Below, in pieces: positions 18,011-24,709 of a stretch of 34,960 nucleotides of DNA. Numbering within the stretch: position 1 is the first letter of the stretch; every line of letters begins with the position of its first letter. The stretch comes from a virus. The stretch is from UHGV virus genome UHGV-0140617; one strand, given 5' to 3'. The position numbers and the translations under genes were made by a program. Below the pieces are notes generated by a model. That model made no database searches and was not told the DNA's origin. It saw only the letters and a list, made by a program, of their open reading frames with translations.

Positions 18011-18231
18011 GCGATCACCTTTGGTTCAAATGAGCGGACGTTGATAGGCTGATCGTATGGAAAAGACCAGTTAAGCCATGTGAAGGTTTTAAGTTCACAC
18101 ATCCCGTCGAACACCTCGCAAGGCTTAATATCGGTATAACTGCAGACGATATGTAATTCGTCACCCTTCGACTGCAAAACAACCGTGTCAGTTTCCCAAT
18201 GTGGAATGAGAAGAGCCAGCCACTTAATCAT
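18007..18231 (-). CDS. Hypothetical protein in lysis cassette
   Basis: 74 aa, ATGA-coupled to endolysin and to the downstream gene. Confidence 0.4.
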   Translation of the reverse strand: MIKWLALLIPHWETDTVVLQSKGDELHIVCSYTDIKPCEVFDGMCELKTFTWLNWSFPYDQPINVRSFEPKVIA

Positions 18232-18845
18232 GAAATCACCGATTTTGCTTTGGTGTAACGTGCACGGCGGTCGTTAATACCGTTTTGTCCACCATTGATG
18301 ATCTGAGTGATGCGAACCAGATCGCCGGAATAGCTCAGGCATCCGCTGGTGGCGTAGAACCATGCAGCTGAACGTGCAGCGTTGATGTCCTTTTCCAGCA
18401 ACTCAGGATTACTGACTAAATCCAGTTTTAATCCCGTTCCGCAGCGGCGGTAATTATCAAGGCCGGTAATCTGAATCAGCCCGCGTCCACGATATTTCCA
18501 CCCATCGCCTGATGCTTTGTTACCGAGGCGATTGCTGTACACCAGATTTGCAATGGCTGGTTGATTGGCTACCTGCCCTTTTTCTTTGTCACGCCCAAGC
18601 ATATAGGCCTGGTAGTTAGTAATTCGGCGTCCAAAGGTGGTCAGCAAAGCGGCTGGGGTGTAGTTGAAGCTCTCCACCAGCGCAGAGAATCCCGCTGATT
18701 CATGTCCTGACTGAGCAATAAACATTGCCTGGTCTTCAGGCTTAACAATGCCGAACTCTTTCATTGCCGCGTCAATGTGCGGAAACCAGCGTGCAGAAAG
18801 CCCGGCGCTGATACCAGCCGCCTGCTGAAATTGTGATTGGTTCAT
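18228..18845 (-). CDS. Endolysin, glycoside hydrolase family 19 (chitinase-like lysozyme)
   Basis: 205 aa with GH19-like motifs (AQSGHESAGF, GRGLIQITG); adjacent to holins. Confidence 0.8.
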   Translation of the reverse strand: MNQSQFQQAAGISAGLSARWFPHIDAAMKEFGIVKPEDQAMFIAQSGHESAGFSALVESFNYTPAALLTTFGRRITNYQAYMLGRDKEKGQVANQPAIANLVYSNRLGNKASGDGWKYRGRGLIQITGLDNYRRCGTGLKLDLVSNPELLEKDINAARSAAWFYATSGCLSYSGDLVRITQIINGGQNGINDRRARYTKAKSVIS

Positions 18846-19126
18846 TATTGCCTCAGATGATCAACCAGGCGTGCCACGTTGCCTCTGACGGCGACCAGCA
18901 CAGACAGGAAAATAATGTTGGCCCCGATAGTGGCCCACGATGAATAAGGGTAGATACCGCACAGATATGCCAGCGGAACCGCGCTATAGATGACCGTAAG
19001 CAGCCACGCCAGGCGAGATATCCATGGTCGATGTCGCGAATCGCCTCGACGATAAAACATCAGGGTCAGCACTACCCCAGCGCAAAGCAGCGCATTGATT
19101 GTTGCCGATGGGTCATTTAGTACCAC
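18845..19126 (-). CDS. Holin-like membrane protein
   Basis: 93 aa, multiple TM segments, immediately upstream of endolysin. Confidence 0.6.
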   Translation of the reverse strand: MVLNDPSATINALLCAGVVLTLMFYRRGDSRHRPWISRLAWLLTVIYSAVPLAYLCGIYPYSSWATIGANIIFLSVLVAVRGNVARLVDHLRQ

Positions 19127-19499
19127 CTGAACCTCCCCGGCGCGTTATCAGCGCCACCAGCGAGCCGACATCCTGATTATTCAGGAACGTCAGGATTTTG
19201 ACAGCTAAAGCAGAAACGATTACGGCACCGATAGCGTCCAGAGGCTTATCACTGTAACCAGTCCAGTCAGCCAGCTTTGAACCCACCAGCCCAGAGCAGA
19301 TTATCCCTGCGATGTAAGACACGACAAAATACGCCAGCCGACGTGCCGCGCTAAGGTCCGAAGCCGTTGCAATGTAAAATACAGCCCCGGCAAATGCGCC
19401 AAACACCACGCCATAATCGGTTCCGGAAACAAATCCATAGACACTGGCTCCCGTCAGGACACCACCAGCCAGCCCAGTACCGGAAATCGGATCGGACAT
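19113..19499 (-). CDS. Holin
   Basis: 128 aa, Gly/Ala-rich TM helices; first gene of the lysis cassette; SD AGAGGGGG. Confidence 0.65.
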   Translation of the reverse strand: MSDPISGTGLAGGVLTGASVYGFVSGTDYGVVFGAFAGAVFYIATASDLSAARRLAYFVVSYIAGIICSGLVGSKLADWTGYSDKPLDAIGAVIVSALAVKILTFLNNQDVGSLVALITRRGGSGGTK

Positions 19500-19546
19500 T
19501 AAGCCCCCTCTTAATTGCTGTGAGTCCTCTCAGAAATGAGGGGAAT

Positions 19547-19571
19547 AAAAAAACCCGTTCGAATGAACGGG
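19547..19571 (-). terminator. Strong intrinsic terminator immediately upstream of the holin (minus strand)
   Basis: cccgtt(19554-19559)/aacggg(19566-19571) 6-bp stem followed on the minus strand by UUUUUUU (plus A7 19547-19553). Confidence 0.7.
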
Positions 19572-20290
19572 CCAGAAAAGGAGAATTTTGCATTACTGAA
19601 GCGTTAACGCGATGCCGGGTGCCTCCCGGTGGGCCTTTGGCTGACAAACCATGACCCGTGAGCACTTTGCATGTCACTCCCTGACATTGTTTACTGTCAG
19701 TTTCACCCCTCCGCTTAGGGGGATTCATCACAACAACTTCAAACGAGAGCTTTTACTGAATGCTCTTTAACATTAGGACCGATAAAGAAAACCTGCAAAC
19801 AAATAGCCCAATGATTTCAAAAGAGTCAGGCTTCACGGGCTGGATTTATCAACAAAGCACGCAGTGAGTGATACCCGTGAGCCTGAAATGAAAAAGGCCA
19901 CGCAAAAGCGCGGCCCTAAGAAGATATATATATTTTGTTAATTCAGCGGAACATCTGGCATGGAGCGATCCAGTGAAGCGTTAATCAACGCCTTAATCGC
20001 GTTACACACCTGATAAAATCCGCCAGGCTGAGATAATAGCCATTATACGATGACCACAGATATGTTGCTCCTGGTAAGATCAGTATATATGCTTGAGTCA
20101 ACATAGTATGTGGAACATAAGTTGCTGTAACTGGACGATACATCGCGCAGATGAGATTAATCACGAATCAAATTTGACATTTGAATCATGACGGTTAAAT
20201 CCGCCTCCCGGGCGTGGCCTGCGGATGTGCGAAGTACTGTACAGAGAGATCGCGCGCCCCAGGTGCAACTAATTAATCATGGGAGAGTTT

Positions 20291-20386
20291 ATGAAAAATC
20301 AACATAGCCTTCATGACTGGAGCACTGGTCTTAAAGCCTCGACATCAACATTTATGTTTATCATGATTTTGGTTTATGTTGTGTGA
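20291..20386 (+). CDS. Candidate small ORF (31 aa, hydrophobic C-terminus)
   Basis: ATG 20291 preceded by GGGAGAG; MKNQHSLHDWSTGLKASTSTFMFIMILVYVV; below the ORF-track size cut-off. Confidence 0.25.
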   Translation: MKNQHSLHDWSTGLKASTSTFMFIMILVYVV

Positions 20387-20636
20387 TGTTGATGACACCA
20401 TCAATGCCCAGCAAGCGCGGTTACTCATAAGAGATTTCACACCACTAACCCCGCTGGGTGTCAGACTGAGATTTTGAGTCTGGTTCGCTACCGGGGGTTA
20501 GGATCTCGTTTCATCAACCCAGAAGACTGATGCTATATCTGATTGAACCAGTTGGTGTTAGATGGCACTTGTTGGACTTGGACCGACACCCAAAATAATC
20601 AATCTGGTTCGTGCCCTGTAAGATAAGAGACTAATA

Positions 20637-20825
20637 TTACTTTCTCAGCACTCCTTCATTCGGGCTGCTTGAAGTATAAGGTGTATAGTTATCAGGTGTA
20701 ATCATTGAAGATTTACAAAAAATACACTTTGCACCAAAGGGATTTTTCTCAGTCACATCAAAATGAGATGTTCTGTACTGTGACCCATGACAACAAGGGC
20801 ACTTAAAATAAATATGAGCAGTCAT
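20637..20825 (-). CDS. Small zinc-ribbon-like protein
   Basis: 62 aa with CPCC-H ... C-IF-C cysteine pairs; in the Q-to-lysis accessory region. Confidence 0.5.
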   Translation of the reverse strand: MTAHIYFKCPCCHGSQYRTSHFDVTEKNPFGAKCIFCKSSMITPDNYTPYTSSSPNEGVLRK

Positions 20826-21247
20826 GATATTAGCCTTTATATGCTACAACATTCACTACCGCAGTGATAACCAGAAGATATATTTTAACTAATAGTTCTT
20901 TTGGTTTTAGCATCAGATTGCAATTCACTTTAAAAGCAATAAAAATGAACATTTCTTATCTGCTTACATAGGGAATCTAAAATAATATAATTTCTTTATA
21001 TTATAACATCAGCGATTTTTGGGATGTTGTTAACTTTTACGAATGCACTTAAGCGTGCAAAAAAACTACAGAGGTAAACAGACAAATGACATTTATAAAA
21101 TAATCATTTCAACTGTTCTATCTAGTGATTAGACTCAGACATCTGTTCAGATCGGTTTGAGCAGATGTCGAGTTTCTGAAAAACCAATATATCTACTCAG
21201 GCTTTCACCGTCTTCGCTATCGTATATTGGCCTCAATCAGAAAAGTA

Positions 21248-21460
21248 TCAGGCAGCTACAACGTTTTCGGCTGACGGCCCTTTTGCACCAGCAGTGATGC
21301 TGAACTCAACTTTTTGGCCTTCATTCAGCGTTTTAAAACCACCACTCTGAATGGCAGAGAAGTGTACAAACACATCTTTACTACCGTTATCAGGGGTAAT
21401 AAAACCAAAACCTTTAGATTCATTAAACCATTTTACTAAACCAGTCATTTTATTAGACAC
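21248..21460 (-). CDS. Cold-shock protein, CspA family (prophage-borne paralog)
   Basis: 70 aa [38 protein letters not shown]... with RNP1/RNP2 motifs; ORF-track start is GTG (21458-21460), alternative ATG at 21446-21448. Confidence 0.9.
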
Positions 21461-21996
21461 AGGTATTTCCTTAAATTCTATGTAGCCTTACGGCGAAAAG
21501 GTTTTCGCACACAATCTAATTAGTAACGATAAGAAGGCTCAAAAGAAAGGATTATCTGTGGATAACGCTTGAGATGAGAACTGCTTTACTAAACCGCTTT
21601 AATGGGTCTGTGTACCTAACCAACCACTCATTAATCACACAACCCACAAACAATAGCAAGTTATTTTTTCATTAAATTGTTCGGAACATCTTAGAAATGG
21701 ATGCCGTGACAGCATAATCAGTGATTTTTCCCCTCGATAACATATGAGTGATCGCCTCTGTACGAGCAGAAACAGAATACATCAGTTTTATCAATCACCT
21801 ATAAAGAACATTCAACCACTCTGAAAAAATCCAGTAATGAGTTTTTTGTTCTATGCTTTCGTAGTCCATGGAATTGGTGGTAACAAAGGTAACCATTTCA
21901 TCCAACTCAAAAACAATATTTACAAAACTATGCTACTTTTATTTCATATATGTGTATTATTAGGTAAAGGAAATTAGAACTTTCAAAGGAGAAAAA

Positions 21997-22209
21997 ATGC
22001 AACGACAGAAAATGATATCGTCGAAAATAAAATTTGTTGGTTACTACCCATTAGAAAAAATCCTCGAGATAGGATTCGTTAACTCTTCAACCTTTCAGTA
22101 CGTTGGTGTCCCAGAAAGCATCTATAATTCTTTTCTAACAGTACAATCTAAAGGCCGTTTCTTTGATGGTGTTATTAAAGGTAAATTCTTGTGTCGTAAA
22201 ACCGGATGA
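21997..22209 (+). CDS. KTSC-domain-like small protein
   Basis: 70 aa; strong SD AAAGGAG; pattern VGY...L.I.F.N...Y.Y.GVP.S.Y......SKG.FF...IK recalled as KTSC-like; plus strand, opposite to late transcription. Confidence 0.5.
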   Translation: MQRQKMISSKIKFVGYYPLEKILEIGFVNSSTFQYVGVPESIYNSFLTVQSKGRFFDGVIKGKFLCRKTG

Positions 22210-22524: not shown

Positions 22525-23340
22525 TCAATAAGTTGTTGCTTTCTCAAATTCTGATGATGCCTGACGCTCTCCCTTGTGCAGTGCATCAACCAACATTTCA
22601 TAGAATGGCTTCCAGTTACGAGACCATGAGGACTGATGGAGATCCGGCAGACGTTTAAGGATAGCCCGGTGAACGGTCGCAGATGACACTCTGGAATACC
22701 CCTCGCCGCTGCAACGCTCACACGTTTTGAAAACCGGTGCGCCGCGGTCTTTTGTCGCGATGCGGTCCAGTACCTCGCCCTTTCCACCACAACGGCAGCG
22801 GGCGCTGATTGTTCCCTTGCCTTCGCAACTATCACAGACGGCCGGTACAACCTCTGTTACCTCAGTCCAGTGCTCCCAGTCAGACGGACGAACGGCACGA
22901 GAGCGGTTAGCCCAATATGGTGCTTTACCCCATGGGTACGAAACCTTACGGGTGACCTGTTCGCGGGTTGTCCGTCCGGTACCATTGCAGCTGTGACACG
23001 TCACGCTGGTAGCCGCCGAACGAGAGTATTCAGCAAAGGCAAATTGCGCCAGCATCAGCATGCACCATCCCAACTCACCACCGGCTGCTTTGCGCACGTT
23101 CTTTGGTGCTGTCTCCATTGCGTGGCGTGCCAGCGCCTGAACCGCAAGTTGCTCATCGCTTTTGCTGATCCCGGTTTTACCAAAGAAAGCGGACAGACCA
23201 AAACGCGCGCGGCTGCTGGTCGTACCGATGGCTACCATAACATCGGTTCCGGTGAGGCGATCCGGAGAGGTGCCTTTCACGCTGTCGCTGATGTGCATCC
23301 CCTGAGGGCTGAAATGTTTGAGTGATGATTCCAACTTCAT
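22525..23340 (-). CDS. Q: Late-gene antiterminator Q-like protein
   Basis: 271 aa from ATG 23338-23340 (MKLESSLKHF...) with SD GAGGA; CxxC zinc-binding pairs (CHSCNGTG, CDSCEGKG, CERCSGEG); position between replication genes and the lysis region. The longer track ORF is an N-terminal over-extension. Confidence 0.75.
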   Translation of the reverse strand: MKLESSLKHFSPQGMHISDSVKGTSPDRLTGTDVMVAIGTTSSRARFGLSAFFGKTGISKSDEQLAVQALARHAMETAPKNVRKAAGGELGWCMLMLAQFAFAEYSRSAATSVTCHSCNGTGRTTREQVTRKVSYPWGKAPYWANRSRAVRPSDWEHWTEVTEVVPAVCDSCEGKGTISARCRCGGKGEVLDRIATKDRGAPVFKTCERCSGEGYSRVSSATVHRAILKRLPDLHQSSWSRNWKPFYEMLVDALHKGERQASSEFEKATTY

Positions 23341-23350
23341 GATAATTTCC

Positions 23351-24709
23351 TCAGGCTTTTGCATACCGACGCGGTTGTGATTTTTGCTGCGAGGCTGATT
23401 TTGATTTCGCTTCTTCCTGGTCAATCGGCAGAAAATGCCCGTTGTAGAAACGGCGGTACACGGTTCCAAGAACGCCGTTACGCTGTTTGGTGATGTTAAT
23501 TTCCGCGATCCCTTTCGCCGGCGATTCGGGGTTATACACTTCATCGCGATAGAGCATCATGATGATGTCAGCATCCGCCTCAATTTCGCCGGAGTTCTTC
23601 AGGTCAGAGTTCATGGGACGTTTATTCGGTCGGGATTCCACGCCTCTGGAAAGCTGGCTCAGGGCCAGAACGGGAGTGCGGTTTGTTTTGGCAAGTCGCT
23701 TTAATCCCTTCGACAGTTCACCCACCGCGAGGTCATAGCGTGCCGTGCTCTGGATCTTAATGAGTAACAGATAATCGATAACCACCAGCGCGGTTTCTGG
23801 ATGAGAAATCTGATGACTGGTTGCCGTTTGCTCGATCTGCTCAAGCGTCAGATCTGTGGCATCGACCATCCAGATATTGCGCCCGGTAAGATGCCCGATA
23901 CCTGTAGATAACCTTGCCCAGTCTTCATCTTCAAACTTCGCGGCTGCTTTGAGCCTGGACACTGACATACCACCAGCAGCAGATACCATTCGCTCGCCAA
24001 TCTGGATGTTGGCCATCTCCATGCTGAAAAACAGTACGCCATGCCCCTGCTCTGATACCTTATCGATAATGTCCAGTGCCAGCTCGGTTTTCCCCATCGA
24101 CGGACGAGCCGCGATGAAGACCAGATCTGTCGGTTCAATGCCGCCGGTTTTAGCGTCCAGTTCTTCAATGCCGGTCATCAGCGGTTTGGCCTCTTCCAGC
24201 CCCTGATTTCTTGCATCTACCCGGTCAATTACTGCAGGTAAGATTTCATCAATATGCACAGGTTGAACGGTATCAGGAGTGAGTGAAATTGAAGCCATGG
24301 CCTCCTGCGCGGCTTTCAACGCTTCGACTGCGTTTTCACCATTGGCAGCATTGCGAATGCCAGCCAACGCTGTCTCGATTACAGCCTCGGCGTCACGAAC
24401 GGCAGCATTACGTTCCAGTGTGGAAACGTAATACGTCAGAGCTGATTTAGCCCATGCGATACGGCTTGACTCGAGTATCGTTGCGCTGTGTTCTGGCATG
24501 ATCTCACACAGCAACAGCGGATCTATCACTCCGGTCCCCCGAGCCTGACGACAAATGCCGGAATATATTTCACGGTACTGACGGACAGAGAATGCGCTCG
24601 CCGGCATACGGGAAAGAATGCCCAGAACCTCAGGATCGGTATTGCGCAGAAAAATCGCGCCAATTACCGCACCTTCCAGATCATTATTTTTCCATACCGG
24701 AGTCATCAT
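23351..24709 (-). CDS. Replicative DNA helicase (DnaB family)
   Basis: 452 aa; Walker A ARPSMGKT, and RecA-like core motifs. Confidence 0.9.
   Translation of the reverse strand: MMTPVWKNNDLEGAVIGAIFLRNTDPEVLGILSRMPASAFSVRQYREIYSGICRQARGTGVIDPLLLCEIMPEHSATILESSRIAWAKSALTYYVSTLERNAAVRDAEAVIETALAGIRNAANGENAVEALKAAQEAMASISLTPDTVQPVHIDEILPAVIDRVDARNQGLEEAKPLMTGIEELDAKTGGIEPTDLVFIAARPSMGKTELALDIIDKVSEQGHGVLFFSMEMANIQIGERMVSAAGGMSVSRLKAAAKFEDEDWARLSTGIGHLTGRNIWMVDATDLTLEQIEQTATSHQISHPETALVVIDYLLLIKIQSTARYDLAVGELSKGLKRLAKTNRTPVLALSQLSRGVESRPNKRPMNSDLKNSGEIEADADIIMMLYRDEVYNPESPAKGIAEINITKQRNGVLGTVYRRFYNGHFLPIDQEEAKSKSASQQKSQPRRYAKA

Follow-up and report, generated by a model that had tools for sequence, protein, structure and literature searches.

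Probable relics of a lambdoid phage tRNA array between a cold-shock cassette and the lysis genes of a prophage

The region between Q and the lysis genes

Related lambdoid phages carry a tRNA array of the type Met-Arg/Lys/Thr-Gly in the slot between the gene of the Q antiterminator and the lysis genes. In phage 933W the array reads ileZ-argN-argO. The intact arrangement is displayed by Escherichia phage PhiR47_1, where Q, small ORFs, the tRNA genes Met-Lys-Thr-Gly, holin S, lysozyme and Rz are located on one strand. Such arrays were found in 62 phage records of GenBank, Stx-converting phages included. The Q-to-lysis arrays of lambdoid phages and tRNA pseudogenes are both known already, and the locus described here is an unannotated example of them. 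A literature search on ileZ/argN/argO and on YmcF/YnfQ returned nothing usable. The same neighbourhood also harbours small RNAs (sRNAs). Pas sRNAs were reported beside Q, tRNA and holin genes, all of them finishing in an intrinsic terminator, and STnc100 is related to the PasD sRNAs, which are found beside Q genes (preprint 10.64898/2026.05.13.724894).

The window, i.e. the whole stretch of 34,960 nucleotides analysed here (UHGV virus genome UHGV-0140617), is a lambdoid (lambda-like) prophage in which the minus strand carries the late genes. An interval of this DNA (20190-20620) had been flagged as a structured non-coding stretch with repeats and hairpins, which may encode a small RNA or be a remnant of degraded sequence. 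The features considered below are the following, in the reading order of the minus strand:

23351-24709, minus strand: DnaB helicase
22525-23544, minus strand: Q antiterminator (PF03589)
Between Q and the KTSC gene in minus-strand reading order: 107-aa ORF
21997-22209, plus strand: KTSC-domain gene, on the strand opposite to the late genes
21176-21624, minus strand: CspA-family gene with the Rfam cspA thermoregulator (5' UTR)
20637-20825, minus strand: YmcF-like zinc-ribbon gene
20190-20620: flagged interval, between the YmcF-like gene and STnc100 on minus-strand reading
20563-20618 (5' limit approximate), minus strand: putative 5'-truncated relic of tRNA-Met/Ile(CAU) type, first gene of the array
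20481-20557, minus strand: tRNA-Arg(UCU) pseudogene, full length (77 nt) and structurally ruined, defined by homology to intact phage tRNA-Arg
20445-20501, no strand assigned: imperfect extended hairpin CTAACCCC...GGGGTTAG, enclosing CAGACT/AGTCTG and overlapping the 3' end of the Arg relic
20291-20386 (or from 20279), plus strand: ORF of 31 aa (35 aa from 20279), MKNQHSLHDWSTGLKASTSTFMFIMILVYVV, preceded by GGGAGAG
20058-20444, no strand assigned: orphan spacer with no relative detected, containing the ATCCGC...GCGGAT/CCCGGG hairpin (20199-20226)
20025-20057, minus strand: 5' half of tRNA-Gly(UCC), last gene of the array, just outside the interval
19917-19894, minus strand: terminator-like hairpin
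19542-19759, minus strand: full-length copy of the prophage sRNA STnc100 (RF02076, 76.8 bits)
18228-19499, minus strand: two holins (PF16931, PF05449) and a GH19 endolysin

[quoted passage not shown] In one related locus (L006), the lysis genes are the same as in the window but the segment 19545-19826 is absent, so that this locus is devoid of STnc100. The region 20637-22209 corresponds to a prophage cold-shock cassette composed of the KTSC gene, the CspA-family gene with its thermoregulator 5' UTR, a 40-aa ORF and the YmcF-like gene.

Relics of tRNA genes on the minus strand

A first clue was given by a weak blastn match of 20068-20025 to an E. coli sequence annotated as tRNA-Gly / tRNA-Thr. 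The stretch 20025-20057 is identical at all 33 positions to the 5' half of an intact 75-nt tRNA present in related loci (L003-L010), and ARAGORN called an intact 75-nt tRNA at the equivalent place in seven of the ten related loci. The truncated tRNA-Gly allele is common to the window and three loci (L001, L002, L006). Homology between the window and L003-L010 stops exactly at 20025, in the anticodon loop of tRNA-Gly, where the gene is cut by a recombination breakpoint. In the window and the three loci with the truncated allele, an unrelated segment of 109 nt (19916-20024) replaces the 3' half of the tRNA and the approximately 155 nt following it in L003, and runs into the terminator-like hairpin at 19917-19894. 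A 59-aa ORF with a GTG start (19985-20164, minus strand) overlaps the truncated tRNA-Gly; no family was assigned to it in PHROG, NCBIfam or Pfam, and it is most likely spurious.

One and the same tRNA body bears different anticodons among the related loci, whose cassettes are nearly identical in other respects. Six loci have TCC (Gly), L003 has TTC and is labelled Glu, and L008 has TCT and is labelled Arg (L003:3769-3843 and L008:3264-3338 compared with L004:3769-3843, the window equivalent being approximately 20057-19983 on the minus strand). The two variants are one-base anticodon changes within a tRNA-Gly body, and could represent either missense suppressors or an early stage of decay.

The 5' half of tRNA-Gly was used to scan IMG/VR, which delivered 96 phage loci. 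In five viral contigs, the minus-strand sequence 20584-20481 of the window aligned at 69–72% to a region adjoining tRNA-Gly or one tRNA gene before it, and the matched sequence corresponds to the 3' end of tRNA-Met(CAT) followed by tRNA-Arg(TCT). The second of these genes was recognised in the window by BLAST comparison with a library of 116 distinct phage tRNAs. The segment 20552-20481 matched positions 6-77 of tRNA-Arg(TCT) without gaps and with 45.4 bits, while 500 dinucleotide shuffles of the segment gave a mean of 19.7 bits (sd 2.0, maximum 29.7), which places the relic about 13 sd above the shuffles. Compared over its full length with the intact tRNA-Arg(TCT) of the phage locus L162, the relic is identical at 53 of the 77 positions, again without gaps, and it ends with ACCA.

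The structure of this tRNA is lost to a large extent. Only 14 of the 21 stem pairs are kept (acceptor 3/7, D 3/4, anticodon 5/5 and T 3/5). The D-loop reads AATCAGATA, in which the GG is gone, and the T-loop is TCCTAAC as compared to TTCGAGC in the intact gene. The anticodon loop CTTCTGG retains TCT, with a G at position 37. The minimum free energy (MFE) of the relic is -12.2 kcal/mol (z +0.83) versus -32.8 kcal/mol (z -2.63) for the intact gene. ARAGORN detected no tRNA in the window, and Rfam RF00005 gave no match in 19850-21000 with the cutoff relaxed to E <= 10. The intact relatives served as positive control, scoring 51–69 bits with the Rfam model, and were also called by ARAGORN. The relics thus lack what is expected of a functional tRNA, namely a call by a tRNA finder or covariance model, four stems, a T-loop of the form TTCRANY and the GG of the D-loop.

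[quoted passage not shown] Its segment 20593-20563 displays 77% identity to positions 44-74 of an intact phage tRNA-Met(CAT) with 26.8 bits, a score that was reached anywhere in the segment by 5 of 500 shuffles. Taken alone, this match is modestly significant, and the proposed assignment to tRNA-Met/Ile rests also on the position of the relic and on a relative found in Citrobacter braakii (L011). In a six-way alignment, the Met relic and the following Arg relic of the window line up in register with the Met-Arg pairs of four intact arrays, and the first ~20 nt of the Met/Ile gene are seen to be missing, i.e. the 5' third with the 5' strand of the acceptor stem and the D-arm. The relic was called neither by ARAGORN nor by Rfam.

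The C. braakii relative belongs to the chromosomal KTSC-csp-ymcF locus of Citrobacter (L011, L187-L196). The Csp protein encoded there is identical to that of the prophage, and the prophage YmcF-like protein is 92% identical to that of C. braakii L011. Downstream of ymcF, L011 contains the same truncated Met/Ile relic, which matches positions 20-73 of tRNA-Met with 36.8 bits. In contrast to the window, the Citrobacter chromosomal locus has neither the orphan segment nor tRNA-Gly, and its homology to the window stops at approximately 20561, or at approximately 20445 by a rough alignment. Among 80 species-representative ymcF loci, C. braakii was the sole one reaching into the interval (to 20561), and among the loci sharing the identical Csp, the chromosomal ones of Citrobacter end at the same position. 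Since the chromosomal locus also carries the truncated Met/Ile relic, the prophage and the Citrobacter locus share an origin which involved a phage tRNA array.

Altogether, the window resembles the arrays of lambdoid and Stx phages in slot, strand and order, with Met/Ile(CAU) first, Arg(UCU) thereafter and Gly(UCC) last, and the relics are 69–77% identical to intact members. Homology, slot, strand and order all point to a relic of a lambdoid-phage tRNA array. In contrast to these arrays, the window contains no intact gene, as the first is 5'-truncated, the second has mutated so far that it no longer folds, and the last is interrupted in its anticodon loop. Moreover, the Arg and Gly genes are separated by ~420 nt of unrelated sequence, while intact arrays display spacers of 1–3 nt or further tRNAs at this place. 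With tRNA pseudogenes the window shares a recognisable homology to tRNA, the loss of conserved loops and pairing, and the failure of ARAGORN and RF00005 to find it; no notable difference was seen, and the window is a typical unannotated case.

Many tRNAs in the phage arrays L091-L186 have abnormal anticodon loops (e.g. L113:9028-9104, L165:1921-1997 and L100:3571-3644), and were labelled by ARAGORN as tRNA-?(Cys/Leu)(gcaa), (Asn/Stop)(tt) or (Asp/SeC)(tc), the (tt) label alone being given to 11 of them. These could be either decaying genes or unusual decoders.

Hairpins, small-RNA signals and coding capacity of the interval

The individual elements named in the original prediction could be read directly in the sequence. 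The stem formed by ATCCGC (20199-20204) and GCGGAT (20221-20226) around CCCGGG (20207-20212) is present, CAGACT (20462-20467) pairs with AGTCTG (20477-20482) over a loop of 9 nt, and the repeat TCTGGTTCG occurs at 20479-20487 and 20603-20611. The interval is correctly described as free of ORFs of at least 60 aa, the longest one having 39 aa, and its designation as non-coding is supported. In contrast, neither the hairpins nor the repeat nor the folding exceeds chance level, which removes the support for the interval being structured and repeat-bearing. When 20190-20620 was shuffled 1000 times with its dinucleotide composition preserved, 25% of the shuffles contained a direct repeat of 9 nt or more and 18.5% contained three or more perfect 6-bp hairpins (loop 3–20 nt). 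Folding of the whole interval (431 nt) was no more stable than that of shuffled sequence (minus strand, z = -0.64; plus strand, z = -1.13), and the same applies to the ATCCGC hairpin by itself (z = -0.85). No further copies of the segment or of the hairpin were found in the window.

By alignment, one copy of TCTGGTTCG maps to the Met/Ile relic, in the region of its anticodon stem, and the other to the 3' end of the Arg relic. The idea that the copies represent homologous tRNA 3' ends was ruled out by this alignment, which places them at non-homologous tRNA positions; as they belong to non-homologous parts of two different relics, the repeat appears to be accidental. Two related loci show a polymorphism in one copy, at 20606.

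The CAGACT/AGTCTG hairpin is part of the larger imperfect hairpin at 20445-20501 (MFE -17.7 kcal/mol, z -2.5), which was equalled by 4 of 200 shuffles and is mildly unusual for a region that was picked post hoc. By rough alignment it lies opposite a stem-loop with a T run behind it (CCTCG-TTCTAA-CGGGG-TTTTGT), which was read by eye as a terminator after the relics of L011 and was predicted by no tool. Compared to L011, the copy in the window has an insertion and is devoid of the T run. The hairpin may be the decayed terminator of the former tRNA pair, while the other hairpins noted earlier and the 9-mer repeat are chance features.

It is unlikely that a small regulatory RNA has gone unrecognised in the interval or in its orphan core (20190-20480), either processed from the csp/YmcF-like/tRNA transcript or produced as an antisense RNA from the plus strand. 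Known prophage sRNAs occur in the neighbourhood, with a genuine STnc100 lying between the interval and the holin gene; the sequence is unchanged in at least ten mosaic prophages, and the z-score of the hairpin 20445-20501 would fit such an RNA. However, no match was obtained in the interval with the 4227 families of Rfam, neither at the gathering threshold nor at E <= 10. The only 'hit' to appear within it, SNORD48, was discarded as noise (E = 8.5, 12.8 bits versus a gathering score of 36). No terminator-like site was found in 20190-20620, unlike in the Pas sRNAs, which all have one, and the only promoter-like match starting there is a weak one (9/12 at 20339-20367, plus strand). Overall folding stays at the level of the shuffles, and no DNA homologue was detected in 5,426 genomes of E. 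coli, which is the host species of the Pas sRNAs. Compared to STnc100/PasD and PasA/PasC, the interval therefore differs in family match, terminator and E. coli homologue, while it shares their neighbourhood. Among the 11 copies available (the window and ten loci), only two sites of the interval are variable (20606 and 20342), neither of which is compensatory. The small-RNA option raised in the original prediction is consequently unsupported, as no Rfam match, no pair of promoter and terminator and only ordinary folding stability were seen, and the conclusion that the interval is not an sRNA is one drawn from the absence of such signals.

We regard it as quite improbable that the tRNA-like remnants have kept a role as signals at the RNA or DNA level, be it as processing points for RNase P/E in a polycistronic transcript or as hot spots of phage recombination. 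This would be in line with the mosaic breakpoint located exactly in the anticodon loop of tRNA-Gly (20025), with the fact that the cold-shock cassette meets the array within the Met/Ile gene, and with a mini acceptor-like fold that can be drawn for the Met relic (-14.4 kcal/mol, z -1.5). However, the breakpoints record past recombination at tRNA genes which were intact at that time and not a present function. Moreover, the Arg relic has lost the acceptor stem (3/7 pairs) and the T-arm, both of which are required by RNase P, and the folds are not significantly stable.

The remaining part of the interval belongs to a spacer for which no relative was found. The similarity of 20058-20480 to tRNA is at chance level (best score 13.5 versus a shuffle mean of 13.4). 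At the DNA level, no match to 20058-20480 was obtained by megablast and blastn in GenBank phages, in the 5,426 E. coli genomes and in PLSDB plasmids, and searches of the same collections with the region of the interval gave matches only to the tRNA-Gly half and to the YmcF-like gene. Stop-free six-frame translations of at least 22 aa had no match in phage records (tblastn) or among 5.8 billion proteins, and small ORFs of at least 25 aa had none in PHROG, NCBIfam or Pfam. A 20-mer taken from the GC-rich hairpin was absent from IMG/VR.

Several candidates were considered in this region and rejected. A tRNA-Thr relic just upstream of tRNA-Gly was plausible by eye and not significant, as 79 of 300 shuffles were equally good. 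A tRNA-Leu-like reading of GCCCGGGAGGCGGAT and of the TGATTCAAA palindrome obtained no support from any tool and was dropped. A 27-nt match to a Tenacibaculum phage (E = 0.6) was taken as noise. Eleven metagenome matches of the hairpin 20-mer, judged by eye to be mostly coding-looking, were attributed to chance, as they cover 20–27 nt in sequences of 61–72% GC with unrelated flanks. An inverted repeat of 13 bp with a 5-nt spacer was observed at 20161-20191 (TCACGAATCAAAT-TTGAC-ATTTGAATCATGA, 11/13 complementary, with TTGACA at its centre). It may be operator-like in appearance, and it may also be due to chance since inverted repeats are abundant there, the repeat finder listing 64 pairs in 1.15 kb of this region.

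The ~390–420 bases that separate the Arg relic from the Gly fragment are most simply a non-functional spacer or sequence decayed past recognition. For about two-thirds of the interval (20190-20480) the label of spacer is a default and not a finding. The orphan core (approximately 20058-20444) is carried unchanged by at least ten mosaic prophages; nevertheless, there is little reason to expect that it encodes an undescribed function such as the 31-aa peptide or an sRNA processed from the csp/YmcF-like/tRNA transcript.

For the peptide in particular, it is very unlikely that the plus-strand ORF at 20291-20386, which opposes the late operon in direction, gives rise to a real small protein, be it a small hydrophobic toxin or the product of a moron. 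The Shine-Dalgarno-like GGGAGAG is found 3 nt upstream of the ATG at 20291, the C-terminus is hydrophobic, and the same cassette has another plus-strand gene (KTSC, 21997-22209). However, no convincing promoter was found upstream, and the hydrophobic tail of ~12–15 residues is below the length of a membrane helix. No homologue was identified among 5.8 billion proteins, in phage records (tblastn), PHROGs or NCBIfam, and the codon-degenerate pattern of the first 10 codons gave no match in IMG/VR and JGI metagenomes. None of the ten related loci has a gene called at this place, and the sole internal polymorphism is non-synonymous (Thr/Ala at 20342).

Proposed history of the locus and its meaning

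The block 21700-20025 is 99.4–99.9% identical in ten other loci, which have differing lysis modules and in some cases also differing replication genes. As its companions differ in this way, the block is considered a mobile mosaic module. Its near-identity across the loci reflects recent spread of the module and does not demonstrate selection on the stretch. Conservation of the block across mosaic prophages is compatible with a function, and the recent spread explains it equally well.

That the interval is random intergenic DNA with an accidental resemblance to tRNA is hardly credible. In favour of this reading, the hairpins, repeat and folding are at chance level and most of the interval matches nothing. 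It is refuted for 20481-20618 by the shuffle score, the multiple alignment and the full-length ungapped Arg comparison with its ACCA end, and the Arg relic is flanked by the Met relic and the Gly half-gene in the order and orientation of intact arrays.

The interval is thus likely to consist of inert decay products of a phage tRNA array together with a spacer, transcribed only by read-through. The slot would originally have held a small lambdoid-phage tRNA array on the minus strand, with Q on one side and the lysis genes on the other. The leading gene of the array, tRNA-Met/Ile (CAU), would have lost its 5' third at the junction with the cold-shock cassette (csp, YmcF-like). The second gene, tRNA-Arg (UCU), would have accumulated ~30% substitutions which broke the cloverleaf, and the last one, tRNA-Gly (UCC; 20057-20025), would have been cut by recombination in its anticodon loop. 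From the observed homology to intact tRNAs, the synteny, the loss of structure and the lack of any other match, we infer that the DNA is probably without a function of its own and that its transcription would be passive, owing to read-through that starts in the csp/YmcF-like genes or in the late operon. The earlier suggestion of a remnant of degraded sequence holds for about one-third of the interval (20481-20618, minus strand), which comprises two decayed phage tRNA genes.

The flagged stretch is a case of ordinary genomic decay, with no sign of a new RNA gene. Expression of the orphan core, if it occurred, would extend the set of small genes carried by prophages by one, and no finding made here points in this direction. 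An apparently empty 'structured' gap of a prophage is explained as the wreck of a tRNA array, which matters little beyond annotation. Relics of this kind are missed by tRNA finders and Rfam, and are recovered by direct comparison with intact phage arrays. In this group of phages, tRNA genes are marked as the points of module exchange: the Met/Ile gene contains the junction with the cold-shock cassette, and the Gly gene, in its anticodon loop, that with the lysis-proximal module.
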